Positions 9,623 to 63,416 of a stretch of DNA of 64,000 bases are shown in pieces. Under the pieces are notes generated by a model. That model did no database searches, was not told the origin of the DNA, and saw nothing but the letters and a program-made list of their open reading frames with translations. Both the position numbers and the translations under genes were made by a program. Positions within the stretch are counted from its first letter, which is position 1; each line of letters opens with the position of its first letter. The DNA lies in the NCBI GenBank assembly GCA_030698625.1, contig JAUYMS010000040.1, positions 21,499 to 85,498 on the forward strand, given 5' to 3'. Source of the stretch: Candidatus Omnitrophota bacterium. Its GTDB lineage: Bacteria; Omnitrophota; Omnitrophia; Omnitrophales; Aquincolibacteriaceae.

Positions 9623-9624
9623 CC

Positions 9625-11684: not shown

Positions 11685-11736
11685 GGAGTGTTTTGTAACA
11701 TATTGTTATGAAATGAGTTAGGGGTAGTTTTAAGGC

Positions 11737-11765
11737 TTTGACGGTGTCGCCTATATTCGCTATCA
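11737..11765 (+). promoter_or_regulatory. Sigma70-like promoter TTGACG-17-TATCAT for the pepM operon
   Basis: ttgacg (11737-11742), a 17-nt spacer, then tatcat (11760-11765), inside the 100-bp divergent spacer. Confidence 0.35.
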
Positions 11766-11784
11766 TAGGCACCTATTCCACCGA

Positions 11785-15739: not shown

Positions 15740-15746
15740 CGCGAAA

Positions 15747-15773
15747 CATGTCTTCAAGTCGAGACTTGACCCC
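15747..15773 (+). repeat. REP-like hairpin element, copy 2
   Basis: catgtcttcaagtcgagacttgacccc, 8 nt after the ADH stop. Identical to the copy at 22142. Confidence 0.6.
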
Positions 15774-15838
15774 TCGTGATTTTTCGCTAGACTATACGAA
15801 ATCTTCAGTTATGGCGACTGGAACCGATATAAAGAGAT

Positions 15839-47342: not shown

Positions 47343-49261
47343 AATTTGATGCAAAGAAACTTAAAGTAAATCCTCAGCAGGTCTACGAGCATATGCAAAA
47401 GGAAAGCGTCCCGTGTAATATCTGCGGGGCTGAGAACCTCATCGATGTCCTCGATCGCGACCGATACGGGATGGGCATTAAAACAGTAATTTGCGAATCC
47501 TGTGGTTTTCTCTTCACGAGCCCGCGGCCGGTTCCCGCCGCGATGAGCGAATTCTACCGAACGACTTACCGGAAATTTTATACGGGAACGAAGAACCCCA
47601 AAAAGGAGTACGAGGATAAGCTCCATGTGCAAAAGAGGGAATGGCTGTACGAGCGCGTTAAGGGGCATATCGAGAAGCGCGGAAAGAAAAACCCGAAAAT
47701 CCTTGATGTCGGATGCGGTGCAGGTGCACTGCTTAACGTCTTCCGCAGAAATCTTCCCGACAGTGAACTCCATGGTGTGGAACCGACCCCTGAGTTTGCG
47801 CGTTATGCCCAGGAAAGGAATGGCGCCACGGTCTATAATGGAGGTGTCGCCGAGTTCTTCCATGAGCACCGGGGACTGCAAGGCTCGTTCGATGTCATTA
47901 CGCTTTATCACGTCCTTGAGCATCTTTATAACCCTGCGGATTTTCTCATCACCCTCAGAGATTTTCTTGTGCCCGGAGGCCTTTTGCTCATCCAGGTCCC
48001 GAATGCACTTTCTCCCCACTGGCAGAACGCCATTCAAATGTTCCACATCGCTCATATCAGCCACTTTAGCCTCTCGACACTCCGGCATGCCTACCAAGTA
48101 GCCGGTTTTCGCGTCCTTTACGAATTCGATGGGCCGCATCCCGGCAATCCGCGCGCGTTAACCCTTTTGGGCGAAAAGACGGACTCGCTATTACCGAAAG
48201 CAGACATCCCGCGGTTGACTGCGGACCGGGTTCAATCAATCACCAAATCAATTCGGGAAAGCGCCGCACCTCTCGAAGGTGTCAGTTTTGCCCGCCAATT
48301 TCTTCTCACTTATAAACGAAAGGGCGTCACGGAGGCTTTACGCGGACTCGCAGGTTACGCCAAACACAAAGTGCGGAAGTTCGCCATGAAGATGGAAGAA
48401 CTTTTTGGAAATTTCAAGCACCGCGGCATCAAGTACGGATTCGAAAAGCTTTGTTTCTATTTCGCGCAAAACGCCCTAAAAATCGCAAGGCTCGCGAAAA
48501 AGGCAGTCGTGTTCACCTACGGTTCGGCTCGAATTTCTGCAGCTTGGTCTTTACACCATCTTACCAATGACGCTCCGCTCCGAAAACTCATCCGGGGTAG
48601 GCGTGTCCTCATCCTTGGTTCAGGCCCGTCAGCGAAAGAGCTCGGCGATATCCCTGATGACGTGCTTATTTTTACCTGCAACGCAGGATTGCGCCTCTTG
48701 CGCGAGCGCGGCATAGACCGTCCGGTAGATCTCTACCTATGCCGCAAGAAGGCCATGACCGCCGATTATCCGGATATTGAGGGCCTCCTTGCCGAACAGA
48801 AAGCGAACGTCTACGTCATGGACGATGCCCGTTATGTCAAAACCAAAAAATCCTTAAAAGGGGCTTATGAGATCTTACTCCCGGACCATCAGAAAGATAA
48901 TTTTTACCTCAATAAACTCATGAAGCCGGATTCGATGCGCTTTATCCGCGAAGATGAGGTAACCTGGACCTCGGCAGGCATAAGGCTGCTCCAGTATGCC
49001 CTCTACTTCAAAGCAAGCGGCATCTTCATGATTGGGATCGACCTCAGCAACAATGGGTATTTCTGGGGCCCTGACTATGCCCACAGATTACCGACTGAGA
49101 AGAAAGGGCATAAGCACTCCATCGATTTCAATTTTCTGCGCTTCATGGCAAGGCGACATCCCAATCTATACTCGCTGTCGCCCTCGAGCCCTGTCTCGAG
49201 CCATCTCCCGTGCAGAAACTTCGATATGACAAGCCCGACCCTGGCAGGCTCGATTCTATGA
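47339..49261 (+). CDS. Fusion: Zn-ribbon + class I SAM methyltransferase (N-terminal) and CstII/GT42- or DUF115-like glycosyltransferase domain (C-terminal); paralog of the ORF at 23669
   Basis: CNICGA...CESCG, ILDVGCGAGAL...LYHVLEHL. C-terminus: RVLILGSGPSA...LIFTCNAG...IFMIGIDLSNNGYFWG...NLYSLS. Confidence 0.6.
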   Translation: MKFDAKKLKVNPQQVYEHMQKESVPCNICGAENLIDVLDRDRYGMGIKTVICESCGFLFTSPRPVPAAMSEFYRTTYRKFYTGTKNPKKEYEDKLHVQKREWLYERVKGHIEKRGKKNPKILDVGCGAGALLNVFRRNLPDSELHGVEPTPEFARYAQERNGATVYNGGVAEFFHEHRGLQGSFDVITLYHVLEHLYNPADFLITLRDFLVPGGLLLIQVPNALSPHWQNAIQMFHIAHISHFSLSTLRHAYQVAGFRVLYEFDGPHPGNPRALTLLGEKTDSLLPKADIPRLTADRVQSITKSIRESAAPLEGVSFARQFLLTYKRKGVTEALRGLAGYAKHKVRKFAMKMEELFGNFKHRGIKYGFEKLCFYFAQNALKIARLAKKAVVFTYGSARISAAWSLHHLTNDAPLRKLIRGRRVLILGSGPSAKELGDIPDDVLIFTCNAGLRLLRERGIDRPVDLYLCRKKAMTADYPDIEGLLAEQKANVYVMDDARYVKTKKSLKGAYEILLPDHQKDNFYLNKLMKPDSMRFIREDEVTWTSAGIRLLQYALYFKASGIFMIGIDLSNNGYFWGPDYAHRLPTEKKGHKHSIDFNFLRFMARRHPNLYSLSPSSPVSSHLPCRNFDMTSPTLAGSIL

Positions 49262-50763
49262 AATTTGTCACCCTCGTAACGCAGGATTATCTCCCAGGGT
49301 TCTATGCGTTAATGCAAAGCATCGCAGACCACGGCGGGCTCGAGCCCTCGGCTAAATTCCTGGTGCTTTACGCCGACGGGCAAGTTCTTCGGCACGCCCC
49401 GCAAATTCGCAAGTTTGGTTTTCAGTTTGAATTTCTGGATATCCACACCCTGGGAAAGGCCCACGCACCGCTTGCCGAACGGGGAAGAAATAAATTCCAA
49501 ATCGCCCTTCAGAAGCTTCTGATTTTTAAGATCCCGTCCGAGGAGAAGCTGTGTTTCATTGATTCCGATATGCTATGCCTCAACTCGCTCGATGGCGTCT
49601 ACGCGATGGAGCACTTTTCCATTGCTCCCGACAAACCCAAAAAGTATCTCCGTGATCGACTGCCCGTTCTAAACACCGGATTCATGGTCTTTAGCCCCTC
49701 GTCGGCCCTTTATGATGAAATCACGGAGTACATCAATCAATCATCGGAGACTTTTGATTGGGGCGATAACGGGGTCTTAAACCACTTCTTCTACGACCGG
49801 AGACCTGAGGAGATACACCTAGTCGATCGCAATTGGAACATGCGTAAAAAGGCAATGATCCATCAGCCTAAAAGCTTCGATCTTAAAAAGATTCGGCTGC
49901 TCCATTTTGTCGGCAACAACCCCTGGACTCACTTCGCCGGATTTCTGGCTGTTATGGCCTATGAGCGCGACTATCTCTCGCTCAATATACTCTGGTGGAA
50001 CTACTATCTTCGGTCTCAACTTGCGGCAGGCTTTCTGCCCGCATCCAAAGCGCTTATCGCCAGCATCCCTGCCGGCTTTATTGGGGCGGCAGTTAGCTTT
50101 CTCGATTTTTTTAAATTCGCGGCGGGAAACCGTATCAGCTCTTGGCTTGAGGCGAATCTAAAGAGTCTCTGGGCCAATACTGTCAAATATGCCCGGATTA
50201 AGTATACTCGCAAGATTCCCGCCAGGCAGGATTTTCCGCTGCTTTTGAGATCACTCAAGGCACAGGGGAAGGGCGTAGAGATCGGTGTGGCTCAGGGACG
50301 TTTTTCAGAATTCCTCCTAAAAAGCGGTGAGATTTCCCATCTCGTGTGCATCGACCCATGGAAGGAACAATCCCCGGACGTCTATCAGGATGTGAATCAC
50401 GTCTCAGATGAGGAATATGAACGCCGCTACTGGAATGTCTCGCAGCGCCTAAAGAAGTACGGAGAGAAAAGCCGGGTCATGCGCATGACATCTGAAGAGG
50501 CCGCGCCTCATTTTGACCGCGAAACCCTCGACTTTGCCTATATCGATGCCAATCACTCGTATGAGGCGGTCAAGCAGGACCTAGAGCTGTGGTGGGACAA
50601 GGTCAAGCCCGGAGGAATTTTCGCCGGTCATGATTACCTGAACGGAAAGTTGCCTGAAGGAAATTTCGGGGTCAGAAGAGCGGTCGACGAATTCGTAGAA
50701 GACCGCAACCTTCAATTGCACGTGACTCGCGAGCGCTGGCCCACGTGGTACGTGATTAAATGA
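49258..50763 (+). CDS. Fusion: GT8 glycosyltransferase domain + class I SAM methyltransferase (Methyltransf_24-like)
   Basis: N-terminus: FVTLVTQDY...CFIDSDM (DxD)...LLHFVGNNPW (GT8 HxxGxxKPW). C-terminus: VEIGVAQGRFS...FAYIDANHSYEAV...GGIFAGHDY. ATG at 49258 overlaps the upstream stop. Confidence 0.65.
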   Translation: MKFVTLVTQDYLPGFYALMQSIADHGGLEPSAKFLVLYADGQVLRHAPQIRKFGFQFEFLDIHTLGKAHAPLAERGRNKFQIALQKLLIFKIPSEEKLCFIDSDMLCLNSLDGVYAMEHFSIAPDKPKKYLRDRLPVLNTGFMVFSPSSALYDEITEYINQSSETFDWGDNGVLNHFFYDRRPEEIHLVDRNWNMRKKAMIHQPKSFDLKKIRLLHFVGNNPWTHFAGFLAVMAYERDYLSLNILWWNYYLRSQLAAGFLPASKALIASIPAGFIGAAVSFLDFFKFAAGNRISSWLEANLKSLWANTVKYARIKYTRKIPARQDFPLLLRSLKAQGKGVEIGVAQGRFSEFLLKSGEISHLVCIDPWKEQSPDVYQDVNHVSDEEYERRYWNVSQRLKKYGEKSRVMRMTSEEAAPHFDRETLDFAYIDANHSYEAVKQDLELWWDKVKPGGIFAGHDYLNGKLPEGNFGVRRAVDEFVEDRNLQLHVTRERWPTWYVIK

Positions 50764-51617
50764 ACCAGGCCACCATCGAAGAAGTGGCATCCTTCTGGAA
50801 CCGTCGTCCGTGCAATGTCCGCCATTCGCCAAAGCCGCGGGGAACTCGCGAATATTTTGAGGAGGTCGAGGCGCGGAAATACTTCGTCGAACCGCATATC
50901 CCTCGTTTTGCAAAATTTGACGAATGGAAGGGTAAAACGGTACTCGAGATCGGCTGCGGCCTGGGGACTGACACCGTCCATTTTGCCAGAGCCGGAGCCA
51001 GGGTGACGGCAGTGGATATTTCCGATCAATCCCTGGAACTCGCTAGGAAGCATGTAGACGTCTTCGGGCTTTCTGATCGCGTGTCTTTTTATCACGCGGA
51101 TGCCGAGAAACTCACGGATGTAATTTCGCCCCAACCTTTTGATTTGGTCTACTCCTTCGGCGTCATTCATCACACGCCCAATCCCGAACGGGTGATTCAG
51201 CAAATCAGAGAAAATTACGTAGAACCGGCGAGCGTGCTGAAGCTGATGGTGTATTACCGCTATGCCTACAAGGTTATTATGATTCTATTGAAGGAGGGCA
51301 GAGGGGCCTTCTGGCGACTGGACGAGCTCGTGGCCCGTCATTCTGAAGCCCAGACTGGCAGCCCCGTCACTTATCTCTATTCACGCCGCCAAATGCGACA
51401 CCTCTTAGAGGGCTTTCGAATCGAAGAAATGGGGGTGGAACACATTTTCCCTTACCGTGTCGCCGAGTATAAGAATTACCGCTACGTCAAATCCTGGCCC
51501 TTTAACTTTCTGTCGAGCGGCGTCACTCGCTGGATCGAGAGTGTTCTGGGTTGGCACCTTTGCGTAACTGCCCGGCCTTGCGCTTCAAACGACTCCAGAG
51601 CGTCAGCTTCTTTTTAG
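50760..51617 (+). CDS. Class I SAM methyltransferase (Methyltransf_11/25-like)
   Basis: VLEIGCGLGTD...VDISDQSL...FDLVYSFGVIHH. The 3' end overlaps the convergent gene by ~95 nt, so it may be over-extended. Confidence 0.65.
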   Translation: MNQATIEEVASFWNRRPCNVRHSPKPRGTREYFEEVEARKYFVEPHIPRFAKFDEWKGKTVLEIGCGLGTDTVHFARAGARVTAVDISDQSLELARKHVDVFGLSDRVSFYHADAEKLTDVISPQPFDLVYSFGVIHHTPNPERVIQQIRENYVEPASVLKLMVYYRYAYKVIMILLKEGRGAFWRLDELVARHSEAQTGSPVTYLYSRRQMRHLLEGFRIEEMGVEHIFPYRVAEYKNYRYVKSWPFNFLSSGVTRWIESVLGWHLCVTARPCASNDSRASASF

Positions 51618-52572
51618 CCGGCGCATCCTTCGTTTTATTTACCCGAAGTACAAACTTCTTCTTCACGACGTCATAGATCGCTTCAAATTCGTTCGCGGTC
51701 AAGAAAGGGAAGGGTCTTTCTCCTGATAGCCGCACGTTTTTTCTTGCCGCAAACGTCATGGCGTGACGCTTTCCCGGCGCGTAAGTGTCTGTAAATTCAT
51801 CCAAAACCTCAAAGCCAGCCTGCGTCAGAGCCCGCCGTAAGGTGCTAGGAATAAACTGGCTCACGTGGTCTATGTGCACTTTCTTTATGGGAGCGTCACA
51901 ATCGCGATGAAGAATATTCGGAACTTCGACAACAAGCAGACCTCCATCGGTCAAAAATTCACCGATTTCGCGCAGTTTTTGGACCGGATTATACATGTGT
52001 TCCAGGACGTGTACCAACGTGACAACATCCATCCGCCTATTGAGTGGCGTCTTGTAATGATTTAGTGCATGACATTGACCGCTAAAAATTTTGGCCCTGG
52101 TGTTTTCCCGTGCATAAGCCGCAAACGAATCCGTAGGCTCGATACCATACAGCTCCGCGGCAGGGAGCGATTGTCCAAGTAGATTGAGGAGAATTCCGGA
52201 AGCACAGCCGACATCCAGAATACGTATGTCTTCTGCCTGTCTGCCCCTGAGGTGCCGCAACGTAAAGTCACATATCCACTTTGCGCGCTTGTACACGCGA
52301 GAATCGGGGTTATAGTCCTTTGCCGGATCGCTAGCGCCTGTATAGAAGCCGCGATATGTTGTGCGGTAAAATGCGAGCATTTCCTTTTCAGTGGGGCGGG
52401 GATTGGTAAATATGAATCCGCATCTGCCGCAGATCACCGTTCTCAGAGGCATCCCGTTCTTGTCTAGATCAAGAATTTCTACCTGCTGGCGCGAGTCGCA
52501 GAGACTACAAGGAACGTCTTCCTTTTGCATTTGTTCATACAAACTTCGATGTTCTTCGCGCGTAAGCTTCAT
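51523..52572 (-). CDS. Zn-ribbon + class I SAM methyltransferase (paralog of the N-terminal domains of the ORFs at 23669 and 47339)
   Basis: CSLCDS...CGRCG, ILDVGCASGIL...LVHVLEHM. Confidence 0.65.
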   Translation of the reverse strand: MKLTREEHRSLYEQMQKEDVPCSLCDSRQQVEILDLDKNGMPLRTVICGRCGFIFTNPRPTEKEMLAFYRTTYRGFYTGASDPAKDYNPDSRVYKRAKWICDFTLRHLRGRQAEDIRILDVGCASGILLNLLGQSLPAAELYGIEPTDSFAAYARENTRAKIFSGQCHALNHYKTPLNRRMDVVTLVHVLEHMYNPVQKLREIGEFLTDGGLLVVEVPNILHRDCDAPIKKVHIDHVSQFIPSTLRRALTQAGFEVLDEFTDTYAPGKRHAMTFAARKNVRLSGERPFPFLTANEFEAIYDVVKKKFVLRVNKTKDAPAKKKLTLWSRLKRKAGQLRKGANPEHSRSSE

Positions 52573-53642
52573 ATAGCAAGCAGCCTTTGCAATCCCGACT
52601 TGATGGCGGGCCGGTCATCTAGCAGAGCCGTATGTGCCCTTCCATGGTAAAAGTCGCGAACTCGGATTGCGATATCATGAATAGGCACAAGCTCAATGTT
52701 TCCCTTAGACTGCAGATTGTGGAGGAAGGCGCGGTGTTTTTCATGAACAAAATGTTCCTCATCAAAAACAATGACATGCGCGCCTGACGAAGCTGCTTCT
52801 GAGACCATGTTGACGCTCTCCGGTGAAACAATCACAATGTCTGATAGACCGAGGATGCCGGCAACTGCGCCAGGGGGATTATACTCTTCCGGAATGACCA
52901 AAAGGCGACAGCGCGGATAGGGCCGCAATTCACTTTTCAGTAAGTCGATAACCGTTGTCGGGGTACGCCGTGAGGCTGTAACCATCATTTCAGCATCCAA
53001 ATTCTCGCACGCTTCCTTGACCTCCGACAAGACTCGAGCGATCATCTCTTCGCTCATGCGGAAGTGCTTATAATCTCCGCCAAGAAGTAAAGCAACTTTG
53101 AAAAGCCGCATCGGGCCAATTTCACGCGCGAGTTGAGCTGCTGATTCTAAAACCCTCTGAGGACTCATGAAATTAATAGAGCCTTCCGTACGAATAACAT
53201 TCGGCAGGTCTTCGACACGGTCGTGGCGGGGGATAATGGCAAGGTCAAATTTACTCAGACCTCGGCGCGGCGTCATCACGACGACAGATTTGGCCCCCAG
53301 GCGGCTCGCCAGCCAACGATTTACATCTGCTGTTCGCTTCCCAAACGCCGAGATAATGATATCTGCAGTCAGTCCGGAAAGTTCGGCATAATCTCGGTCT
53401 GAAACCTGATAGCGAATACATCGGTTGCAGCCGTTACAACGTTTTGCCTGCGGGTGTAGTGCGTAATAAAGGATCTTTGCCGCGAGGGATCGTTTGAACT
53501 TAACGTCTACTTTGTAATCGGTTTGCAGGATGGAGGCGGGTGGATGGCCGGATTCCACGCATGAGTCCTTGAGCATCTGAGCTACGGCTTCGCATTGACG
53601 CGCATGCCCCATGACTCCGTCACCTAAGACAAGAATCTTCAC
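52569..53642 (-). CDS. GT-B-like glycosyltransferase (possibly ELM1/DUF1022 family)
   Basis: Two-domain Rossmann-like layout with LLLGGDYKHFRMSEE in the second half. Weak recognition. Confidence 0.35.
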   Translation of the reverse strand: MKILVLGDGVMGHARQCEAVAQMLKDSCVESGHPPASILQTDYKVDVKFKRSLAAKILYYALHPQAKRCNGCNRCIRYQVSDRDYAELSGLTADIIISAFGKRTADVNRWLASRLGAKSVVVMTPRRGLSKFDLAIIPRHDRVEDLPNVIRTEGSINFMSPQRVLESAAQLAREIGPMRLFKVALLLGGDYKHFRMSEEMIARVLSEVKEACENLDAEMMVTASRRTPTTVIDLLKSELRPYPRCRLLVIPEEYNPPGAVAGILGLSDIVIVSPESVNMVSEAASSGAHVIVFDEEHFVHEKHRAFLHNLQSKGNIELVPIHDIAIRVRDFYHGRAHTALLDDRPAIKSGLQRLLAI

Positions 53643-55585
53643 GCTTTCAAAACACCCTCTTCCTCTTGCGTTTCAACAGCGGTATTACGCTGTCCGTCGA
53701 GCACCTTTTGCGCATCCCAGTACTCGTAGAATGCCCCCTTTTTAGCCAGCAACTTAGTCCACGTCCCTTCCTCGACTACGCAGCCGTCTTCGAGTACGAT
53801 AATCTTGTCGGCACTTGCAACTGTAGACAGGCGGTGCGCTATGACCACACAGGTCTCGTGCTCAGTAAGCTTGTCGATGTCCTGTTGGATCTTCCGCTCG
53901 GTTTTTGTGTCGAGCGCGCTCGTTGCTTCGTCCAGGATCACTAAATCCGCCTTTTTAAGGAAGACGCGCGCTATGGCAATACGCTGTTTCTCACCGCCTG
54001 AAAACTTGGCGCCTTTCTCCCCGACAAGAGTATCCACTCCCTGCGGAAGCCTCTTGGCAAATTCACTGAGTTGGGCATATTCGAGCGCTAGGTTCAACTC
54101 TGCATCCGAAATCTCATGGCGCAGGCCGTACGTTACATTTTCCCTGAGAGTGCCCTGAATGATCATCGGCTCCTGTGTGACAATTGCGATATGTTCGGCC
54201 AGCGAGCGCAGACTGAAGTCGCGTATGTCGACACCGTCCATAAATATAGAGCCCGGTGGGCAGTCATAGAAACGCGCAAGCAGGTGAGCAATAGTCGTTT
54301 TGCCCGCGCCGGTTTTACCCACAATCGCCGTCATTTTCCCTTTTTCAACCACCAAATTTACATTGTGCAGGACCGGACGACCTTTATCGTATCCAAATTG
54401 CAAATTCCGGAACTCGATCGATTTCTGCAGCCCTTCAAAGTTCCGATCGCCGGCTTGTACAAAATATTTGCCTTCATCACTGAGCATCGCCGTTATCCTC
54501 TCCAGACGGCCCGCGCTGCGAGCAATGGAGAGGTTGAGTGTCGCGAATAATGCGAAATTGGGCATTGCGCGCTTAATCAAATAAAAAAGCATCAGGTATT
54601 TCGTGACTTGCGCGGGCCCGTAATTCGGCGCCATCGCAGCCATGACGAAGGCCATTATCAGAAGAAAAGCGATCGTGCTAATGTCCTGAATCGGGCTGAG
54701 CAACAGTTGAAGTTTTTGCGCCTCAAAAGCATCTCTGAGCTCCGTCTCATTTAGTCTCGTAACCTCATCCCGCTCCATGTCTTCTGCCGCATAGGACTTA
54801 ACCAAGGCGATACAACTGACGGCATTATGCAATCGCTGCATAAGATCCAAACGGGAATTCTCGAACCTGATAGAGGCTTCGCGAATCTTACTCGACAAAA
54901 TGTCGGTGATGTAATGGCGCAGGGGGAAAAGCACCAGAGCAACGAGCGTGAGCTGCCATGACAACCAGAACATGATCGCGAGATACACCAAAAGCGAAAG
55001 AGCCTGCGTCAAAAGCTTTACAATCGGCTGCAATTGACCCGTGATCGCCTCAGCCCCCGCGATCACCGTTTGATTAACTTCAACTACCCGGAAACCATCG
55101 AAGTATTGTTTTCCGAAACCGAAAACGCGTTCGACCACCATATGACGCATACGCCCGTTGGCACGCCTCATCTGTTGGCCGATACTCAACGATGAAAAGT
55201 AAGTCATAGCATTCTTGATGACTGTGGCTAAGACAATCATTCCGAGCAGGAGAATAAAATAAGATGTGTTCGATTCAAAAACACCGGGAAACTTGGCTGT
55301 CAGAAATTTTGAGACACCGAGGCGGTCTCCAACCTTAGTGAAGTCTCCCTCGATCAAACCGCGACAAAGCGGGAACAAAAGCGCTATGCCGACCATATTG
55401 AAAAAAACCGAAAACGAAGAGCAGGCAATAGCGAGGAAAAAGTAGCCTGGGATTATCTGCATTTTTTTGAAGAATAAAACAATTAGCTTGAAATGGTCGA
55501 GAAGCCCGGGCGCCTTTATGGACTTGGCCTTATCGATTATTACGCGCGTTTTCAGGTGCGTTAACTCGTGATCGTTAAGTCGCAT
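53639..55585 (-). CDS. Half-type ABC exporter, fused TMD-NBD (MsbA/PglK-like flippase candidate)
   Basis: N-terminal multi-helix TMD. Walker A GKTGAGKTT, signature LSGGEKQRIAIAR, Walker B LVILDEATSALD. 648 aa. Confidence 0.85.
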   Translation of the reverse strand: MRLNDHELTHLKTRVIIDKAKSIKAPGLLDHFKLIVLFFKKMQIIPGYFFLAIACSSFSVFFNMVGIALLFPLCRGLIEGDFTKVGDRLGVSKFLTAKFPGVFESNTSYFILLLGMIVLATVIKNAMTYFSSLSIGQQMRRANGRMRHMVVERVFGFGKQYFDGFRVVEVNQTVIAGAEAITGQLQPIVKLLTQALSLLVYLAIMFWLSWQLTLVALVLFPLRHYITDILSSKIREASIRFENSRLDLMQRLHNAVSCIALVKSYAAEDMERDEVTRLNETELRDAFEAQKLQLLLSPIQDISTIAFLLIMAFVMAAMAPNYGPAQVTKYLMLFYLIKRAMPNFALFATLNLSIARSAGRLERITAMLSDEGKYFVQAGDRNFEGLQKSIEFRNLQFGYDKGRPVLHNVNLVVEKGKMTAIVGKTGAGKTTIAHLLARFYDCPPGSIFMDGVDIRDFSLRSLAEHIAIVTQEPMIIQGTLRENVTYGLRHEISDAELNLALEYAQLSEFAKRLPQGVDTLVGEKGAKFSGGEKQRIAIARVFLKKADLVILDEATSALDTKTERKIQQDIDKLTEHETCVVIAHRLSTVASADKIIVLEDGCVVEEGTWTKLLAKKGAFYEYWDAQKVLDGQRNTAVETQEEEGVLKA

Positions 55586-56687
55586 AAGCTTTCTCCTGCA
55601 TCGCGCATTTTTCTTTAATCACATGCAGGATTCGAGAGAGAACAGGCTCCGGCATTAGGACAGCGCGCACGAAATCCTGAGACTTTCGGATCAGGGCCCG
55701 TCTTTGAATCTCGATCCGTGTGCCACGAACAAACAAGAACCAGTCATCCGCCCTCTTCAGCATAGTAAGAGGTGAATAATTGTCCAGAATGAGCTTCTCA
55801 GCAAACAACGCCACAGGAAGCCCCGCCCGTGCCGCGTCCAACGCGACCGTCGATGGCGTTGTTATGACGGCGTCCGATATTGCCAGAAGACCGGTGGCCG
55901 TAAACGGCTCCCACTGTTTGCGTTTCGGATGGGCAATCACCAGATTCTTTAGACCTCTCAATTCATCATGCGGTTGCCGAACAATCCAGCACTCGTCATG
56001 ATGCGGCTTCACAATAATAGTGGTGTCCGTAAACTTCATTGCCATGCTGCGCAAATGGCACAAAAAAAGGCTGCGCTGTTCAGCATCGAACCGGGTCCAG
56101 TGCAGGTTTTCAAAAACAGAGACAACGTACGGACGATCCGCGGGGTTCTCAAACTTAGGCGGCGAAACCATAATATCCTTCGGACAGCCGACAGGGATGC
56201 AGCGTGCCTTCACGCCGGCTTTCACACTGGGGTGAAGGCGTTCCAAACTCCCCCAAGTAAGAATATGTTGGGAAGCAAAATCGGTTGTTTCCGCGGGGAA
56301 ATCATTATCAAAATAGGTCAGGCCGATATTTTCGTAACCATGTTGCAGCGTGAAAGTGGCGATTCCGGACTGGTTCGCTCGGGCGACCAGACGATGCGGA
56401 GCCAGATGGGCACTTGCCGTCGACTCACAAGCAACTACCAAGGCCATAACATTGTCAAGGGGCGGGGCAAAGCCAACGAGAATGTCGCGGCGAGGGACTT
56501 TAGTAAGCGGAAGGTCTAGCGCTTTAAGGCTCTTTCCAACCCGAGGAGAATGCTGGAGCAGGCGGTCTGTGACGCAGACTACGGGGGAAAGGCTCTTCTC
56601 AAACCGGGTTTCACGGACCAGGGGAAGGAGCAAATCGAGGTCTTGCACTAGATCAAATAGATACAATATGTTACGCGAATGGTTCAC
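55575..56687 (-). CDS. Hypothetical protein (possible glycosyl- or phosphotransferase), first gene of the minus-strand sub-operon
   Basis: 370-aa ORF with no confident motif. 11-nt overlap with the downstream ABC gene. Confidence 0.3.
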   Translation of the reverse strand: MNHSRNILYLFDLVQDLDLLLPLVRETRFEKSLSPVVCVTDRLLQHSPRVGKSLKALDLPLTKVPRRDILVGFAPPLDNVMALVVACESTASAHLAPHRLVARANQSGIATFTLQHGYENIGLTYFDNDFPAETTDFASQHILTWGSLERLHPSVKAGVKARCIPVGCPKDIMVSPPKFENPADRPYVVSVFENLHWTRFDAEQRSLFLCHLRSMAMKFTDTTIIVKPHHDECWIVRQPHDELRGLKNLVIAHPKRKQWEPFTATGLLAISDAVITTPSTVALDAARAGLPVALFAEKLILDNYSPLTMLKRADDWFLFVRGTRIEIQRRALIRKSQDFVRAVLMPEPVLSRILHVIKEKCAMQEKAYAT

Positions 56688-56739
56688 GGCGGTTATCGAA
56701 TCAAGCGCTCCTATTCAAGCTAGGAATTTATCATAAAGT

Positions 56740-56748
56740 TGGTATAAT
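56740..56748 (+). promoter_or_regulatory. Extended -10 element TGgTATAAT in the divergent spacer
   Basis: ttggtataat, read directly. The -35 is weak (ctagga). RBS aagagga precedes the ATG at 56807. Confidence 0.3.
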
Positions 56749-56806
56749 ATCACGGAATTGGGCATTTCACAACTTGTGATAAATAAAGAGGATTCGCTAA
56801 AATTTG

Positions 56807-57853
56807 ATGTTTACGAGAGACCTTACCAGCCCCCCTATTAAGCTCAGCATCGTTCTGGTCCATTTCAAGACGGTCAGTCTCACGCTGACCTGCATTGAGT
56901 CCATCTACACACATGCCCCTGACTGTTCCTTTGAAATTATCGTCGTAGATAACGGTTCAAATGACGATATCGAGGCCGTTATTTCCGATCGTTATCCGGA
57001 AGTCCGGTTTATTGAGAGCGGAGACAACCTGGGATTTACCCGGGGAAATAATCTTGGGATTCATAATTCGCACGGGGAGTATGTCGTCCTACTCAACACG
57101 GATACGGAGCTGATTGATCGCAGTTTCGATGCCATGATCACTTACATGGAAAGCCACACTGAGGTGGGCATCTTGGGCCCGCGCCATGTTGACGGGCAGG
57201 GAAACTTCCAGCTGTCTTTCGGCCATTTCCCTACTTTTTTTTCTGAAATTGTGCGCAAGCTGGCTCATTATCGGCTTCAAATTAACGACCTCCGGATCCG
57301 CGATTACTTCGAAGAAAAATATTCCGGCTCCAGCGTACTCGATTGGGTATCGGGCTCCTGCTTGATGATCCGCCGTGATGTCCTGCACGATATCGGTCTG
57401 CTGGACGAACGTTATTTCATGTACTTTGAGGACATCGACCTTTGCACTCGAGCTCGCAGGCGCGGCTGGTACGTCCATTACTTTCCCCAAACAAGCATCG
57501 TGCATTACGGGGGCCAATCGGTAAAAAGAAATCTTTTGGCCGCCCTCATCGCTTATCGCCTGAGTCAAGCCTACTTCGCGAGGAAGTATTACGGATTTTT
57601 CGGACTATTGGCAGTTCGACTCCTCCTACTTGCGAAATATGGCGTGAATTTTGCCAAGTGGGCCGTCCAATGGCTCTTCACCCGCCTCATGCGCAAAGAC
57701 ACGCGCCGAATCTACACCATGCTACTTCTCGGCAAAAAGGTCATTACCCAGGTTGCACTCGGAAGTATTTCCAAACCTGCGCCCGAACCGGCACTTCATC
57801 GGCCTGAACGTTTATGCGAGCCCGCCGCGACACGCCCTGTCGCAGTTCGATAA
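56807..57853 (+). CDS. GT2 glycosyltransferase
   Basis: LSIVLVHFKT...IIVVDNGSND...LLNTDTE, the WbbL/rhamnosyltransferase-like GT2 pattern. Confidence 0.7.
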   Translation: MFTRDLTSPPIKLSIVLVHFKTVSLTLTCIESIYTHAPDCSFEIIVVDNGSNDDIEAVISDRYPEVRFIESGDNLGFTRGNNLGIHNSHGEYVVLLNTDTELIDRSFDAMITYMESHTEVGILGPRHVDGQGNFQLSFGHFPTFFSEIVRKLAHYRLQINDLRIRDYFEEKYSGSSVLDWVSGSCLMIRRDVLHDIGLLDERYFMYFEDIDLCTRARRRGWYVHYFPQTSIVHYGGQSVKRNLLAALIAYRLSQAYFARKYYGFFGLLAVRLLLLAKYGVNFAKWAVQWLFTRLMRKDTRRIYTMLLLGKKVITQVALGSISKPAPEPALHRPERLCEPAATRPVAVR

Positions 57854-57862
57854 CCGGCGGCT

Positions 57863-59077
57863 ATGCTTCTGCTCAATCGCATTGCATTAGGGGCAATTCT
57901 CGGCATTGTTTTTTTTATTCCAATTTCATCGGCCGCAATCGAGAGTTTTTTCGGCGTCCTGGGTATTTGCGCAGCCCTCCGTCTTTTGCACGTCAGGCCC
58001 TGTCTGGCTGACGTAAAATCTTTTTTTTGGAATCCGCTCCACGCCACTCTAACTGTATTTTATGTACTTCTCGGTATTTCCATTCTTGCCGCTGGCCCGC
58101 TCTGGCCCAAGAGCCTCGAGGCTTGGCTTACCAAGTGGGGGGAGTGGCTTCTCTTGTTCTGCTTAATTCGTCTATTCGTGCAACGGGAACATTTAAAGTG
58201 GATCTCCTACATCCTTGTCTTCACGGCTGCCCTGATTTGTGTCGACGGAATCTTTCAGAAAATAACGGGGTACGATTTCATTCGCGGTTTTGAGATCGTA
58301 CCGGCAAATTATTTTTTGCCGGTACGGGCCAGCTTACACCATTACAACCACTTCGGCGGCTATCTGGCTGTGATCTTTTTTATGATCACAGCGGTGCTCA
58401 TCAACGTGAAAGATCGCGCCAAATGTATCGCTTTAATTGGGCTACTTGGCTTAATCTTCGTCAATCTTCTCTTGTCTTATTCACGCGGCGCCTGGCTCGC
58501 CTTTGCTTCGGGTTGCCTCTGGTTTTTTGCCACTAGCCCCAAGCAAAAATTCAGCTACGCTATCCTAAGTCTGCTAGGCGCGTTGCTCGGCCTCATTTTT
58601 TTACATCCCGGATTAAGAGAACGGGCTGTTTACCTATTCACGAGCGGTGGAGACGAACAGAGATTTGAGGTCTGGAAGGCAGCCCTTCGTGTTTGGATGG
58701 AGTCACCGTATATCGGGCGCGGCCTGGGGCTGCTGATGGACTATCTCCCCGAGTACCTGAGCCAGACCCGAATTAAGGAGGTGTTCTGGGCCCAGTACGC
58801 CCACAACAGCTATCTGCAAATCCTCGTCGAATCAGGCCCCCTGGCCCTATTGAGCTTCTTGCTGGCGGCCCTCGGTATTCTCCTGAGAGGGTTCAGGGCC
58901 GCTAAAGGCTATAGCCCGGCTCATGCTCTAGTCGCCGCCTATGTGGTGCTTCTCGTGCACTGTTTTTTCGAGAATCATCTCTATTCACTCCAGTTATCAG
59001 CGCTGTTTTGGGTCTCTGCCGCGTTCGTCAGCCGGATACCCGAGCTTGGCCTTGGGGAGGGGCAAAAGAGCCATTAA
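57863..59077 (+). CDS. O-antigen ligase/polymerase-like polytopic membrane protein (WaaL/Wzy_C family)
   Basis: About 10 predicted TM helices with a periplasmic loop containing YSRGAWLAF, an O-antigen-ligase-domain-like motif. Confidence 0.55.
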   Translation: MLLLNRIALGAILGIVFFIPISSAAIESFFGVLGICAALRLLHVRPCLADVKSFFWNPLHATLTVFYVLLGISILAAGPLWPKSLEAWLTKWGEWLLLFCLIRLFVQREHLKWISYILVFTAALICVDGIFQKITGYDFIRGFEIVPANYFLPVRASLHHYNHFGGYLAVIFFMITAVLINVKDRAKCIALIGLLGLIFVNLLLSYSRGAWLAFASGCLWFFATSPKQKFSYAILSLLGALLGLIFLHPGLRERAVYLFTSGGDEQRFEVWKAALRVWMESPYIGRGLGLLMDYLPEYLSQTRIKEVFWAQYAHNSYLQILVESGPLALLSFLLAALGILLRGFRAAKGYSPAHALVAAYVVLLVHCFFENHLYSLQLSALFWVSAAFVSRIPELGLGEGQKSH

Positions 59078-59083
59078 TTAGCG

Positions 59084-59111
59084 TTGATTTTTTCTCGTAA
59101 CTCGTTATAAT
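59084..59111 (+). promoter_or_regulatory. Sigma70-like promoter TTGATT-16-TATAAT for the acyltransferase-wzm-wzt operon
   Basis: ttgatt (59084-59089), a 16-nt spacer, then tataat (59106-59111), in the 88-bp AT-rich spacer. Confidence 0.4.
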
Positions 59112-59165
59112 AATTGGGCTAATAAAAATTTCGCCAACGCTCATCTTAACCCCTATCGGAAGCGC

Positions 59166-59675
59166 ATGAGTTCCGCATACGCCGCCTCGCCGCTACAAAA
59201 AATTGCGCCTGACGTACGCTTCGGTCGTGACGTGATCGTTCGTGATTTCGTCAATCTCTACGGCTGCGAGATCGGTGACGAATCGCAGATCGGCCCCTTT
59301 GTCGAAGTGCAGAAAAACGCACGCATAGGTAAGCGCTGCAAAATCTCCAGTCATTCCTTTATCTGTGAAGGAGTGACCATTGAGGATGGTGTCTTTTTAG
59401 GCCATGGCGTCATGTTCACCAATGGGAAATACCCTAGCGCCACCAATCCGGACGGCAGTTTGCAAACCGAGAAAGACTGGATCTGTGAGAAAACCCTTGT
59501 GAAAAAGGGTGCCTCGATCGGATCTGGGTCCTCGATTCTCTGCGGGATTACGATTGGCGAGAACGCGCTTATCGGTGCCGGCAGTGTGGTCACCCGCGAC
59601 ATTCCCGACGGCGCTCGTGCTTGCGGCAATCCCGCGCGTCTCATGCAAGGCGCCTCCGACATCGAAGGCCGCTGA
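59166..59675 (+). CDS. Left-handed beta-helix (hexapeptide-repeat) acyltransferase, probably a sugar N-acetyltransferase
   Basis: Repeating [LIV]G-x4 hexapeptides: IGKRCKI, IEDGVFLG, IGSGSSI, IGENALIGAGSVV. 169 aa. Confidence 0.75.
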   Translation: MSSAYAASPLQKIAPDVRFGRDVIVRDFVNLYGCEIGDESQIGPFVEVQKNARIGKRCKISSHSFICEGVTIEDGVFLGHGVMFTNGKYPSATNPDGSLQTEKDWICEKTLVKKGASIGSGSSILCGITIGENALIGAGSVVTRDIPDGARACGNPARLMQGASDIEGR

Positions 59676-60478
59676 TGCTTCGGGATCTTTTTTCCTATCT
59701 CGGGAATCTTGTCAAAGAGAGGAGAATCATTTTCGAGCTGGCGAAGCGTGATTTCCGCGTACGCTACCTCGGCTCGTATCTTGGCATTCTGTGGGCATTT
59801 CTGCAGCCGGCCGTCTTTGTGTTCCTCCTCTGGTTCATTTTTCACCTCGGCTTTAGGAGCGCGCCGGTCAAGAACATGCCGTACATCCTCTGGCTGCTTC
59901 CCGCACTCATCCCGTGGTTCTTTTTCTCCGAAAGCTTGAGCAGCGCCACCAATGCCCTCATCGACAACAGCCACATCGTCAAGAAGGTAGTCTTTCAGGT
60001 CAATATCCTGCCGGTGATCAAGATCGTCTCTTCGCTGTACGTACACCTAGTCTTCGTCGGAATCCTCTTTGTGGTCTATGCCGCATCAGGCCGCTTTTCC
60101 TTGCCCGTCTTTATCCATGTTGCCTACTATCTGAGCGCCACAATTCTATTAGTTCTTGGGTTGTCATTTTTCACCGCTTCACTCGTGGTTTTTATTCGTG
60201 ACGTCACTCAGGTGATCGCGATTCTCCTGAATTTCGGCTTTTGGATGACCCCCATATTCTGGCATGTCGACCTTCTGCCCGAGAAGTACCAGAGCCTCAT
60301 GCGGCTAAACCCCGTCTATTACATCACGGAAGGATACCGCAATAGTTTTATGCAGCATGCGCCGACCGCGGCAGAACCTCTGTGGACACTTTACTTCTGG
60401 GCTGTGGTCCTCATAACATTCGTGACCGGTGCGATGTTTTTCAAGAGGCTTAAACCGCATTTCGCCGACGTGCTTTAG
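59675..60478 (+). CDS. wzm: ABC-2 type polysaccharide exporter permease
   Basis: RDFRVRYLGSYLGILWAFLQP is a characteristic ABC-2 N-terminal motif. Six TM helices. ATG at 59675 overlaps the upstream stop. Confidence 0.75.
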   Translation: MLRDLFSYLGNLVKERRIIFELAKRDFRVRYLGSYLGILWAFLQPAVFVFLLWFIFHLGFRSAPVKNMPYILWLLPALIPWFFFSESLSSATNALIDNSHIVKKVVFQVNILPVIKIVSSLYVHLVFVGILFVVYAASGRFSLPVFIHVAYYLSATILLVLGLSFFTASLVVFIRDVTQVIAILLNFGFWMTPIFWHVDLLPEKYQSLMRLNPVYYITEGYRNSFMQHAPTAAEPLWTLYFWAVVLITFVTGAMFFKRLKPHFADVL

Positions 60479-60488
60479 GAACGTGACG

Positions 60489-61838
60489 ATGACTGACAAC
60501 ACAGCCATTCGGGTGGAGGGGCTTTCAAAGATATACCGCCTCTATGACAAGCCCATAGACCGTCTGAAAGAGGCCCTTCACATTTTTCGCCGAAAATATC
60601 ACCGTGACTTCTTTGCCCTACAGGACGTCTCGTTTGAAATAAGAAAAGGGGAGAGCATCGGTATCATTGGGAGAAACGGCGCGGGAAAATCAACGCTTCT
60701 AAAAATTCTCACGGGCGTTCTGACTGCCAGCTCCGGCCGGGTCGATGTCACCGGAAAAGTTTCGGCCCTCCTGGAATTGGGGCTGGGCTTCAACCCCGAA
60801 ATGACTGGCATCGAAAACGTTCGCTTTGGCGGCGCGATCATGGGTTACTCAAAGGAGGCGTTTGAAGCGAAAATCGATGAGATCCTGTCTTTCGCCGATA
60901 TCGGGGAGTTTGTCCATCAACCCGTCAAGACGTATTCAAGCGGAATGTATGTACGACTCGCCTTTGCGTTGCAGATGTCCGTTGATCCCGACATCCTGAT
61001 CGTGGACGAAGCTCTGGCCGTGGGGGATGTCTTTTTCCAGGCGAAGTGCATGACCCGTCTGCGCCACATTATCGACAAGGGAGTAACGGTGCTGTTCGTA
61101 AGTCATGATACCAGTGTCGTCAAAAGCCTTTGCAGCAAAGCCCTGCTGCTCGACCGCGGCCGCTTACTTACCTTCGACCGCCCCGGTGCTGTTGCTGAAA
61201 CTTATTTCCGCATGAAAACACAGGCCGAGCAGCCCATACTCAGCCAGTTAGCTGGGGAGCCACGAAAGTTCGTGCCGACCGGCGAAGCCACGGGTGACGA
61301 ACTCTGGGATTCTTTTACGGCTGCCACGCAACCGTTTGAAGAGCGGGCCCGGTATGAGCGGATCAGCAACGGAAAAGCCTCATTCCGAAAAGTCGCTATT
61401 CTTGATGCTGCAGGGCAGGAGATCGAAGAGGCAAATTTCGGGCAGGAGATCACGCTTCGCATGGCCGTTGAAGCGCATGAAGACGTGCCTCAACTCGGAT
61501 ACAGTTACTGCATCGCAGACAGAAACATGCACAGAATCATTTATTCCGATAGCTATATTGAAAACGGCTCCCTTGAGAATGTCCGGGCGGGCGAACGTTT
61601 TATCGTCGATTGGAACTTCAAACTGCCACTACAGGCGGGGTCTTACAACGTCCTCGCGGCTCTGTCCATTCCTGTCAATCTCGAATTGCAGAAAGTGGTA
61701 TTTTGCGACCGTATCCCTATCGCCTGTCAATTTTTGCTCAACCGCGATCCTGCCTTTCACCTATATGCACCGGTAAAATTCGAACATCGCTTACGCATTC
61801 AGCGCATGACGGCGCAAGCGGCAACGGCTGGGAATTAA
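60489..61838 (+). CDS. wzt: ABC polysaccharide exporter ATPase with C-terminal glycan-binding extension
   Basis: Walker A GRNGAGKST, signature SSGMYVRLAFA, Walker B ILIVDEA. About 200 extra C-terminal residues, Wzt_C-like. Confidence 0.8.
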   Translation: MTDNTAIRVEGLSKIYRLYDKPIDRLKEALHIFRRKYHRDFFALQDVSFEIRKGESIGIIGRNGAGKSTLLKILTGVLTASSGRVDVTGKVSALLELGLGFNPEMTGIENVRFGGAIMGYSKEAFEAKIDEILSFADIGEFVHQPVKTYSSGMYVRLAFALQMSVDPDILIVDEALAVGDVFFQAKCMTRLRHIIDKGVTVLFVSHDTSVVKSLCSKALLLDRGRLLTFDRPGAVAETYFRMKTQAEQPILSQLAGEPRKFVPTGEATGDELWDSFTAATQPFEERARYERISNGKASFRKVAILDAAGQEIEEANFGQEITLRMAVEAHEDVPQLGYSYCIADRNMHRIIYSDSYIENGSLENVRAGERFIVDWNFKLPLQAGSYNVLAALSIPVNLELQKVVFCDRIPIACQFLLNRDPAFHLYAPVKFEHRLRIQRMTAQAATAGN

Positions 61839-61839
61839 A

Positions 61840-62670
61840 ATGAGCCGACCCATGTTTCTTATTATAGGCGCGCAGCGATCCGGTACATCGGCCTTACACA
61901 CATGCCTGTCCAGGCACCCCCTTCTTTTCGGGGCACCCGTTAAGGAGATCGGTTATTTTGCTTATAACTGCAAGTACGGTAGGGGTGACGAGTGGTATGA
62001 GCGCGAACTTGAACCTGGTAATATTGACGCCGCTCGTATGACTTTCGAAACTACCCCTGAGTATGCGTATTTCCCGTGGTGCGCAGAGAGAATCCACGTG
62101 TTTGATCCCAATATCCGGTTGATCATGCTGGTCCGTGATCCGGTAGACCGCGCCTATTCGGCGTGGCAGATGTTTCTCAACGCTTTCCGGCAGAGAGCTG
62201 CATGGCTCGTCGAATATCTTTCCGGCATTGACTCAAGCATCAGCGAACCCTTTTACCGCCTATTGGAGGCCCCCGAGCCACCTGACTTTGAGACCGCCGT
62301 CGCCGCCGAACTTTCAGGAGAGAACAACCTCCCGATAGAGCCCAGTTATATTCGCAGGGGACTTTACGGGCAGCAAATCGAGAGATACCTGGGACGATTC
62401 GGCCGCGACGCTATATTGATTCTGGATGCCGCACAATTCGCAACCCGTCCGGCCGAGACCCTTCACCGTGCGTGCCGTTTTCTCGAGATCCCGTATGACT
62501 CAAGCCTCTGCGAGCCGGTATCCCTTGTCAATCGGGGTGAGTACTCACAGCCCGTTCCTGTCGAGGCACAGGAGCAGCTCCGCGAATACTACCGCCCGCA
62601 TAACGAGGTCTTCTTCAACCTCATTGGGCAAGACTTCAGCTGGGCAAAGTCAGAGGCGGTTCGGCCGTGA
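61840..62670 (+). CDS. Sulfotransferase (PAPS-dependent)
   Basis: 5'-PSB IIGAQRSGTSAL and 3'-PB LVRDPVDRAYSAW. Confidence 0.7.
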   Translation: MSRPMFLIIGAQRSGTSALHTCLSRHPLLFGAPVKEIGYFAYNCKYGRGDEWYERELEPGNIDAARMTFETTPEYAYFPWCAERIHVFDPNIRLIMLVRDPVDRAYSAWQMFLNAFRQRAAWLVEYLSGIDSSISEPFYRLLEAPEPPDFETAVAAELSGENNLPIEPSYIRRGLYGQQIERYLGRFGRDAILILDAAQFATRPAETLHRACRFLEIPYDSSLCEPVSLVNRGEYSQPVPVEAQEQLREYYRPHNEVFFNLIGQDFSWAKSEAVRP

Positions 62671-63416
62671 AGACATTGGATCTGCTCGACTATTGGAACA
62701 ACGCTGCAACGCAATCGATGTACGACAAGCATCTAGTTCGTGCAGAGTCAGACCTGACCATGAAGCATTTCCCCAAGATCATCTCACCCAAAATTCTGGA
62801 TGCGGGCTGCGGCGAAGGAGAAGGAACAGAAACCTATGCCTCCGTGAGGGGTGCGACCGTGCACGGCGTTGACTTCTCGGCCAGGCGTCTCGATCTCGCC
62901 CGGGCACGACTCTCGGAAAAATCTAACGTAACACTTTTCCGGCAGGACCTCACCGAAGCGGTTGGTCTTGTGCCCGACTACGACATTGTGATTTCACAAC
63001 GGTTTCTGATTAATATCCCCGAATGGGAGTTGCAGATGAAGGTGCTTAGACAACTCATGGGCCTACTCGCTCATCACGGCAGACTGCTCCTCCTTGAGGG
63101 GCATCAGGAAGGCGCCGCAGCACTTAACGAGTTTCGCGCTGCCGCGGGACTCGAACCGATCCCGGTAAAATGGCATAACGTCTTTCTGAGCGACACCCGA
63201 CTCAAGCGCTTCATGAAAGCGGAAGGGTATCGCCTGACGGCAGAGGATTCACTGGGCGCCTATTTTTTAATGACGCGCGGCATTCGTCCTATGCTGGACT
63301 CGAACCTTGACTGGGACTGCGACTTCAACCGCATTGCTTCCTCGCCTGAAATGATGCGCATGCTTACCGGCTGCGACCGGTACTCGCGATTAAAACTGTG
63401 GGTATATGAAAAATAA
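62667..63416 (+). CDS. Class I SAM methyltransferase
   Basis: ILDAGCGEGEG...VDFSARRL...IVISQRFLI. GTGA overlap with the upstream gene. Confidence 0.65.
   Translation: MKTLDLLDYWNNAATQSMYDKHLVRAESDLTMKHFPKIISPKILDAGCGEGEGTETYASVRGATVHGVDFSARRLDLARARLSEKSNVTLFRQDLTEAVGLVPDYDIVISQRFLINIPEWELQMKVLRQLMGLLAHHGRLLLLEGHQEGAAALNEFRAAAGLEPIPVKWHNVFLSDTRLKRFMKAEGYRLTAEDSLGAYFLMTRGIRPMLDSNLDWDCDFNRIASSPEMMRMLTGCDRYSRLKLWVYEK

Follow-up and report, generated by a model that had tools for sequence, protein, structure and literature searches.

We analysed a stretch of 64,000 nucleotides from a Candidatus Omnitrophota bacterium (GenBank assembly GCA_030698625.1, contig JAUYMS010000040.1, positions 21,499 to 85,498; this whole stretch is called the window), which encodes an ATP-binding cassette (ABC) exporter of the Wzm/Wzt type, a second ABC exporter built as a half-transporter and a membrane protein of the WaaL (Wzy_C) class. 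Most likely, the region holding these genes serves export and ligation at the centre of a surface-glycan locus that is very large and of O-antigen type. The reading we prefer, with a probability of roughly 45%, is that a single ligase would be served by two ABC exporters and no Wzx flippase, the half-transporter carrying a second glycan that would reach the same ligase as a second donor.

Under this reading, the many glycosyltransferases, methyltransferases and sulfotransferases of the window would assemble, in the cytoplasm, a polymer that is decorated and borne by a polyprenyl carrier. The modified end of the polymer would be read by the C-terminal domain of Wzt and the polymer exported through Wzm-Wzt, a mechanism taken from the family to which the domains belong. 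The WaaL-type enzyme, recognised by its fold and residues, would then move the lipid-diphosphate-linked glycan en bloc to an acceptor at the inner membrane's outer face. The divergent operon, with its two GT-B enzymes, methyltransferase and HepA/MsbA-like exporter, would most likely make and flip another lipid-linked glycan, smaller than the first, and supply it to the same ligase. The genes concerned are the following (window coordinates; nt, nucleotides; aa, amino acids; GT, glycosyltransferase; SAM, S-adenosylmethionine).

51523..52572, minus strand: SAM-dependent methyltransferase, last gene of the minus-strand operon (Methyltransf_23, E 9e-20; 4-nt overlap with the upstream gene)
52569..53642, minus strand: PF06258 (ELM1/GtrOC1-type) protein of the GT-B clan, putative glycosyltransferase (Mito_fiss_Elm1, 182.3 bits)
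53639..55585, minus strand: type IV (B-family) ABC half-transporter, 648 aa, second gene of the operon (ABC_membrane, 72.1 bits; ABC_tran, 104.3 bits)
55575..56687, minus strand: GTB370, a GT-B-fold enzyme of 370 aa from a conserved family, first gene of the operon
56688..56803, no strand: divergent intergenic spacer of 116 nt between the two operons (promoter-like matches back-to-back on both strands, not above chance overall)
56804..57853, plus strand: GT2 glycosyltransferase directly upstream of the predicted ligase (Glycos_transf_2, E 1.5e-18)
57863..59077, plus strand: WaaL-family (Wzy_C) 12-helix membrane protein, predicted glycan ligase, 404 aa (PF04932, 69.9 bits)
59166..59675, plus strand: hexapeptide-repeat sugar acetyltransferase (Hexapep, E 2.3e-22; NeuD/PglB/VioB family, 86 bits)
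59675..60478, plus strand: Wzm, ABC-2 permease, 267 aa, six hydrophobic segments (ABC2_membrane, 55.9 bits, E 5.7e-15)
60489..61838, plus strand: Wzt, nucleotide-binding subunit with C-terminal glycan-binding domain, 449 aa (ABC_tran, 83.2 bits, E 3.3e-23; Wzt_C, 77.7 bits)
61840..62670, plus strand: cytoplasmic sulfotransferase encoded immediately after wzt, a candidate for chain modification or termination (Sulfotransfer_1, E 7.4e-15; no hydrophobic segment)
62667..63416, plus strand: SAM-dependent methyltransferase, 4-nt overlap with the sulfotransferase gene, candidate chain modifier or terminator (Methyltransf_25, E 4.1e-12)

Gene layout and the Wzm/Wzt exporter

The first-pass annotation had drawn this unit at 53639-61838, which proved too narrow on both sides. 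The minus-strand operon (51523-56687) consists of four genes, in the order GT-B-fold protein, exporter, PF06258 protein and methyltransferase, whose start and stop codons overlap by 11, 4 and 4 nt. On the plus strand, GT2 and Wzy_C come first and, after a gap of 88 nt, acetyltransferase, Wzm, Wzt, sulfotransferase and methyltransferase; this run passes the end of the window and goes on with a DegT gene, a 1053-aa GT2-GT2-GT4 protein, AsnB, a methyltransferase and a GT2. This downstream extent, the next 8 kb or so, was read on L001, an independent assembly of the same sequence, and sequences of the window are also present on Logan assemblies of run SRR13727534. Domain scans of the open reading frames (ORFs) in the 64-kb window and the next 8 kb found no Wzx, Wzz/Wzc, Wza or GT9, no initiating phosphoglycosyltransferase (Bac_transf or WecA) and no periplasmic GT-C enzyme (ArnT/PMT-type). 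A scan for promoters and terminators gave 14 promoter-like sites where chance alone predicts 10.1 +/- 3.2, which is no more than chance, and it serves here for description only; its best match in the region lies inside the 88-nt gap that parts the GT2-Wzy_C pair from acetyltransferase-wzm-wzt.

The Wzm/Wzt ABC-2 exporter recognised in the first-pass annotation is borne out by the domain scores listed above, and the two genes are adjacent. The C-terminal extension of Wzt, for which glycan binding had been suggested, scores 77.7 bits on PF14524 (Wzt_C), whose gathering score is 30.4, over residues 310-435 of the long ORF and positions 3-127 of the 143 in the profile. The best NCBIfam matches of Wzt are TagH and a galactan Wzt, and among solved structures its nucleotide-binding domain (NBD) is closest to Aquifex aeolicus Wzt (8DKU/7K2T, 243 bits); the sequence match to solved Wzt chains is limited to residues 7-247, the C-terminal domain being too divergent to align. 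The starts of Wzm and Wzt (59675 and 60489) lie downstream of the first in-frame start codons and are those called on L001; a Wzt start at the first GTG was dropped, an exact look-up giving no match, in favour of the start at 60489 in the L001 gene call.

Adjacent wzm and wzt genes and a Wzt_C domain are shared with the Wzm/Wzt O-antigen systems of Escherichia coli O8/O9a, Klebsiella pneumoniae O12/Raoultella terrigena and Aquifex aeolicus. In E. coli O8/O9a, with the gene order wzm-wzt-wbdD-wbdA, and in Aeromonas salmonicida, wzt is followed, as in the window, by one or more small modifying enzymes and then by a large multi-domain glycosyltransferase. The enzymes themselves differ, since a sulfotransferase and a methyltransferase follow wzt in the window, whereas the known systems use a WbdD kinase/methyltransferase or a beta-Kdo (3-deoxy-D-manno-octulosonic acid) transferase. 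The two genes after wzt are candidate modifiers, and we found nothing that ties them to chain termination. The A. salmonicida O-antigen cluster has, in this order, wzt, immediately followed by a sulfotransferase-domain gene, and a three-domain WbbB, and its O-antigen carries no sulfate (PMC4483657).

The WaaL-type protein and its relatives

The protein between the GT2 and the 88-nt gap had been described as WaaL/Wzy_C-like with ten transmembrane helices. Its Wzy_C domain exceeds the gathering score of PF04932 (31.7 bits) and its WaaL fold was recovered, whereas the helix count was revised to 12. The AlphaFold2 model (predicted local distance difference test, pLDDT, 88.9; predicted template modelling score, pTM, 0.90) has 12 long helices, with helices 9 and 10 joined by a large periplasmic loop, and the only significant match of a Foldseek comparison with the PDB was 7tpg_B (E 1e-7, TM 0.60). 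A single-sequence phmmer search of the PDB gave no match, and WaaL was reached only by a homolog profile, built with its alignment from 20 sequences retrieved by a word-indexed search; among solved proteins the sole match of this profile was Cupriavidus metallidurans WaaL 7TPG (E 1.6e-12). Residues S207, R208, R267, H314 and E323 are invariant across the 20 homologs, and R208/R267/H314 align to R191/R265/H313 of 7TPG, Arg/Arg/His being the diphosphate-binding and catalytic residues of WaaL. The window protein is thus like WaaL 7TPG/7TPJ in its Wzy_C domain, 12-helix fold, large loop and Arg/Arg/His, and unlike it in sharing only 16% identity. An older motif, H[NSQ]X9GXX[GTY], which reportedly comes from the literature on Vibrio cholerae WaaL, is followed as far as its Gly (H314-N-X9-G325), and its last position holds Ala328.

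Judged from the sequence, the Arg/Arg/His residues show what would be a transferase using an undecaprenyl-diphosphate-linked glycan, and they do not specify its acceptor. Because O-oligosaccharyltransferases share the Arg/His active site of WaaL (PMC12800693), this test is necessary and not sufficient for a ligase. The genomic context of relatives adds to this evidence, and was taken from a metagenome profile scan that returned 80 Wzy_C relatives at 29-43% identity, with counts made on the 36 loci of at least 8 kb. A Bac_transf phosphoglycosyltransferase is encoded in 32 of these loci, mostly directly upstream of Wzy_C, and genes of the GT9 heptosyltransferase family, which are of the lipopolysaccharide (LPS)-core type, in 8; neither Wzm/Wzt nor a Wzc co-polymerase was found in any of the 36. 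One of the two closest long loci (L093) reads DegT - Bac_transf - Wzy_C - 2x GT9 - 2x GT2 - PMT_2, and the other (L097) DegT - Bac_transf - two small genes - Wzy_C - GT9 - further glycosyltransferase and sugar-modification genes - PMT_2. Such an LPS-core-like neighbourhood favours a ligase over a polymerase. A role as Wzy polymerase was rejected, given the lack of Wzx or Wzz/Wzc and the LPS-core-type neighbours of the relatives, and lives on only within one of the alternatives weighed below.

As a separate observation, the Bac_transf-Wzy_C pair is strongly conserved in the Wzy_C clade (L093-L172), and the window copy, unlike its relatives, has lost this usual partner and follows a GT2 instead.

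The half-transporter and what it may carry

The minus-strand protein had been read as an MsbA/PglK-type half-transporter, and ABC_membrane and ABC_tran domains confirm the architecture, which it shares with HepA (heterocyst polysaccharide of Anabaena), MsbA (lipid A-core) and two flippases of lipid-linked oligosaccharides, PglK of Campylobacter jejuni and Wzk of Helicobacter pylori. Its nearest curated families are HepA and MsbA. The NCBIfam scores were as follows.

HepA NF045513: 463 bits (cutoff 725), best family, full-length match to 7-609 of 610
MsbA TIGR02203: 385.3 bits (cutoff 602), second-best
Glucan exporter NdvA: 315 bits (cutoff 733)
MsbA NF008381: 301.1 bits (cutoff 867)
SmdB, drug pump: 245.9 bits (cutoff 746)
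SmdA, drug pump: 217.1 bits (cutoff 845)
Tet(46), drug pump: 208 bits (cutoff 1250)
PglK NF050066: 183.6 bits (cutoff 1000)

The protein is thus below every curated cutoff and has no membership in the HepA, MsbA, PglK or drug-exporter families, whereas control proteins pass their own models (HepA P0076, 971.7 bits; MsbA P0102, 774.2 bits). A grouping with multidrug exporters, which would have spoken against a flippase of lipid-linked glycans, was not what we found: HepA, MsbA and NdvA all score above SmdB, SmdA and Tet(46), and six relatives gave the same order. The half-transporter therefore groups with glycan and lipid exporters, outside all of the named families. A sequence search of solved structures was dropped as a classifier, since MsbA, BmrA and Sav1866 (260, 258 and 256 bits) were not separable. 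The nearest relative, at 47% identity, comes from another Omnitrophica genome, and more distant ones are metagenome proteins, Peregrinibacteria proteins (about 36-38%) and cyanobacterial HepA (about 32%); two relatives (P0046 and P0057) are fused to GT4 domains. With its relatives from Omnitrophota, Peregrinibacteria and unassigned metagenome contigs, the half-transporter forms an unnamed exporter clade.

All six relatives whose context was examined lie inside glycan loci. One (L003) sits in a methyltransferase-rich locus with a homolog of GTB370, and another (L004) in a Wza-Wzc-Wzy_C locus, where no flippase of the MOP/Wzx family is among the Pfam families on record for 21.8 kb. A third (L005) lies between two phosphoglycosyltransferases and GT4s, and a fourth (L008) has as neighbours a Wzy_C gene and, at 45% identity, a homolog of the window GT2. 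In a Peregrinibacteria locus (L173, 8691-20706) the relative is flanked by a GT4 and two Capsule_synth (KpsC/KpsS-like) genes, along with a full nonulosonic-acid pathway (NeuB, CMP-sugar synthetase, DegT and dehydratase), and this arrangement suggests that a lipid-anchored glycan is exported in a lineage presumed to be without an outer membrane. Peregrinibacteria, a candidate-phyla-radiation lineage, are generally regarded as being without LPS. A scan of metagenome contigs with the exporter profile relied on NBD patterns of a generic kind; the matches listed had about 30-35% identity, a few up to 41%; in those listed loci, tblastn with the other window proteins gave scattered weak neighbour matches only, besides NBD cross-hits.

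Two glycans had been one of the possibilities raised in the first-pass annotation, and this is possible and slightly favoured, as exporter relatives occur near initiating phosphoglycosyltransferases, near Wza/Wzc/Wzy_C or near Wzy_C alone, and without Wzm/Wzt. For the same reason we favour a second donor as the product of the minus-strand operon. Precedents exist for a second donor as well as for an acceptor. A second donor would resemble the cases of PglK in Campylobacter and Wzk in H. pylori: in H. pylori the PglK-like ABC exporter Wzk works with WaaL, and members of the window exporter clade likewise stand in glycan loci, sometimes beside a Wzy_C gene. The overlapping codons of the minus-strand operon and the 116-nt divergent spacer lend further support. 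In Pseudomonas aeruginosa, one WaaL ligates two O-antigens, the common polysaccharide antigen (CPA) exported via Wzm/Wzt and the O-specific antigen (OSA) via Wzx/Wzy. The window would resemble this LPS system in that two routes, Wzm/Wzt among them, export lipid-linked glycans to a single ligase; it differs in that the second route of P. aeruginosa is Wzx/Wzy/Wzz, with separate loci, whereas here it would be a type IV ABC exporter, and all parts lie within about 10 kb.

Several points weigh against this reading. Since neither Bac_transf nor WecA is encoded in the window or in the 8 kb that follow, the second polyprenyl-linked donor pathway is not self-contained, and nor is that of Wzm/Wzt. The PF06258 gene of the exporter operon fits a role on the acceptor (core) side at least as well, because its family is one of outer-core loci: the members GtrOC1, 14, 19 and 22 are encoded in lipooligosaccharide (LOS) outer-core loci of Acinetobacter, their function in bacteria being not known (PMC10327509). 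The GTB370 family, which has no Pfam model and is common among heterocystous cyanobacteria, gave 410 matches (35-46% identity); its homolog in Calothrix PCC 7507 (L011, 10001-11131) stands in a Wzm/Wzt(Wzt_C) locus with no type IV exporter, alongside two more Pfam-less proteins of similar size, and both operons of the window may thus serve one glycan. Finally, as the exporter scores below all curated cutoffs, its gene context is the only guide to its substrate.

The strongest alternative, which we consider rather unlikely, is a single classical LPS-type pathway, in which the half-transporter plays the role of MsbA, the minus-strand operon makes and flips the acceptor (lipid A-core or a core-like glycolipid) and WaaL attaches the Wzm/Wzt polymer to it. 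MsbA is the second-best curated family, the PF06258 gene belongs to an LOS outer-core family, the exporter operon contains no phosphoglycosyltransferase, the divergent promoter region is common to both operons, and the closest Wzy_C relatives are flanked by GT9 genes. Moreover, among the genes of a published Omnitrophota polysaccharide cassette are those for an O-antigen ligase, for an LPS exporter and for heptosyltransferase II. On the other hand, the score is far under the MsbA equivalog cutoff, which a true MsbA exceeds, relatives at 35-37% identity occur in Peregrinibacteria within a nonulosonic-acid glycan locus, and other relatives adjoin initiating phosphoglycosyltransferases. It had also been suggested that the Wzm/Wzt polymer is built on a separately flipped core; a separately flipped acceptor is possible, but "built on" is wrong for this type of pathway, in which polymer and acceptor are exported first and a WaaL-type enzyme then links the completed polymer to the acceptor. 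Classical LPS assembly combines MsbA, WaaL and Wzm/Wzt, so that the trio is what such assembly already needs and the combination is less unusual than the first-pass annotation implied.

Less probable still would be two independent glycans, with the half-transporter flipping repeat units, the Wzy_C protein polymerising them or transferring them to proteins (PglL/PglS-type) and the Wzm/Wzt polymer being served by another ligase or remaining lipid-anchored. This would be in line with the Wzy_C genes that stand beside type IV exporters, without Wzm/Wzt, in L004 and L008, and with the 88-nt gap, which splits the GT2-WaaL pair from acetyltransferase-wzm-wzt and holds the best promoter-like match of the region; since the Arg/His site is common to O-oligosaccharyltransferases, the residues cannot exclude such a role. 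Against it stand the lack of Wzz/Wzc in the window and of Wzc in the relatives' loci, the sole solved structural match, which is a WaaL, and the GT9 core-type neighbours of the closest Wzy_C relatives. Furthermore, the 404-aa protein lacks any additional periplasmic domain at its C-terminus such as has been described for PglS (PMC12800693).

A chance presence in the locus, with the half-transporter exporting drugs, peptides or lipids and having nothing to do with glycans, is very improbable: solved structures do not separate MsbA from BmrA or Sav1866, but translational coupling ties the gene to a GT-B enzyme on either side, its relatives lie inside glycan loci (6/6) and are in some cases fused to GT4 domains, and drug-pump models score below HepA, MsbA and NdvA. 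A further proposal, that it flips a lipid-linked modification donor, found no support and was rejected, as neither the window nor the downstream 8 kb encodes a GT-C enzyme.

Returning to one ligase supplied by two exporters, a bolder version would be that a widespread exporter clade replaces Wzx as the flippase of lipid-linked glycans, that the two ABC exporters feeding the WaaL-type ligase here are mechanistically different, and that a sulfate and/or methyl cap is the signal for Wzt. We offer this version tentatively and find it doubtful.

The wider locus and its possible meaning

The arrangement recombines well-known modules; it is not a new kind of system and does not challenge models of glycan export. 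It is only modestly new, in the unnamed exporter clade and in the compact co-location of the parts in Omnitrophota. The clade is a possible general substitute for Wzx and for this reason worth characterising. The uncultured Omnitrophota are often ultra-small and may be predators or depend on hosts, and with such a lifestyle surface chemistry is likely to matter for cell-cell contact. The surface polymer predicted from the locus would be unusually decorated, with methylation, sulfation and probably phosphonate, and the locus supplies concrete candidate genes for its route to the surface. LPS-type genes and secretins have been reported in Omnitrophota genomes, and the literature we found on LPS or an outer membrane in this group holds indirect statements only; together with the GT9 heptosyltransferase-family genes next to the closest Wzy_C relatives, this indirect evidence would fit a diderm phylum with LPS-type genes.

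Pfam and NCBIfam scans of the ORFs indicate that, from about 6.5 kb onward, the whole window is a single glycan locus. It contains sugar-nucleotide enzymes, more than 10 glycosyltransferases, several of them fused to methyltransferase domains, more than 12 methyltransferases, 4-5 sulfotransferases, a LicD-family transferase and a phosphonate pathway. Its GC (guanine-cytosine) content is about 0.51 throughout, and no Rfam family matched anywhere in the 64 kb. A 1524-aa ORF at 55-4629 had no Pfam or NCBIfam match.

The phosphonate pathway (7637-17377) includes a thiamine pyrophosphate (TPP) decarboxylase, an Fe-alcohol dehydrogenase and three B12-radical-SAM enzymes, together with a phosphoenolpyruvate (PEP) mutase-nucleotidyltransferase fusion at 11785-13500, whose PEP_mutase score of 314 bits is just below the cutoff of 319.55; the LicD-family transferase lies further along, at 33547-34284. 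Together these genes suggest a glycan with a (possibly methylated) hydroxyethylphosphonate group. A fusion of a DnaA C-terminal helix-turn-helix and an IS200-like Y1 transposase domain (21178-22164) sits midway through the glycan locus, where the long run of plus-strand genes starts. At 31846-33543, a Glyco_transf_15 domain (95 bits), from the family of fungal Kre2/Mnt1-type alpha-1,2-mannosyltransferases, is fused to Methyltransf_24, and further glycosyltransferase-methyltransferase fusions, with GT8 at 49210-50763 and with GT2 at 25480-27747, suggest that glycosyl transfer may be coupled with O-methylation, as in polymethylated polysaccharides.

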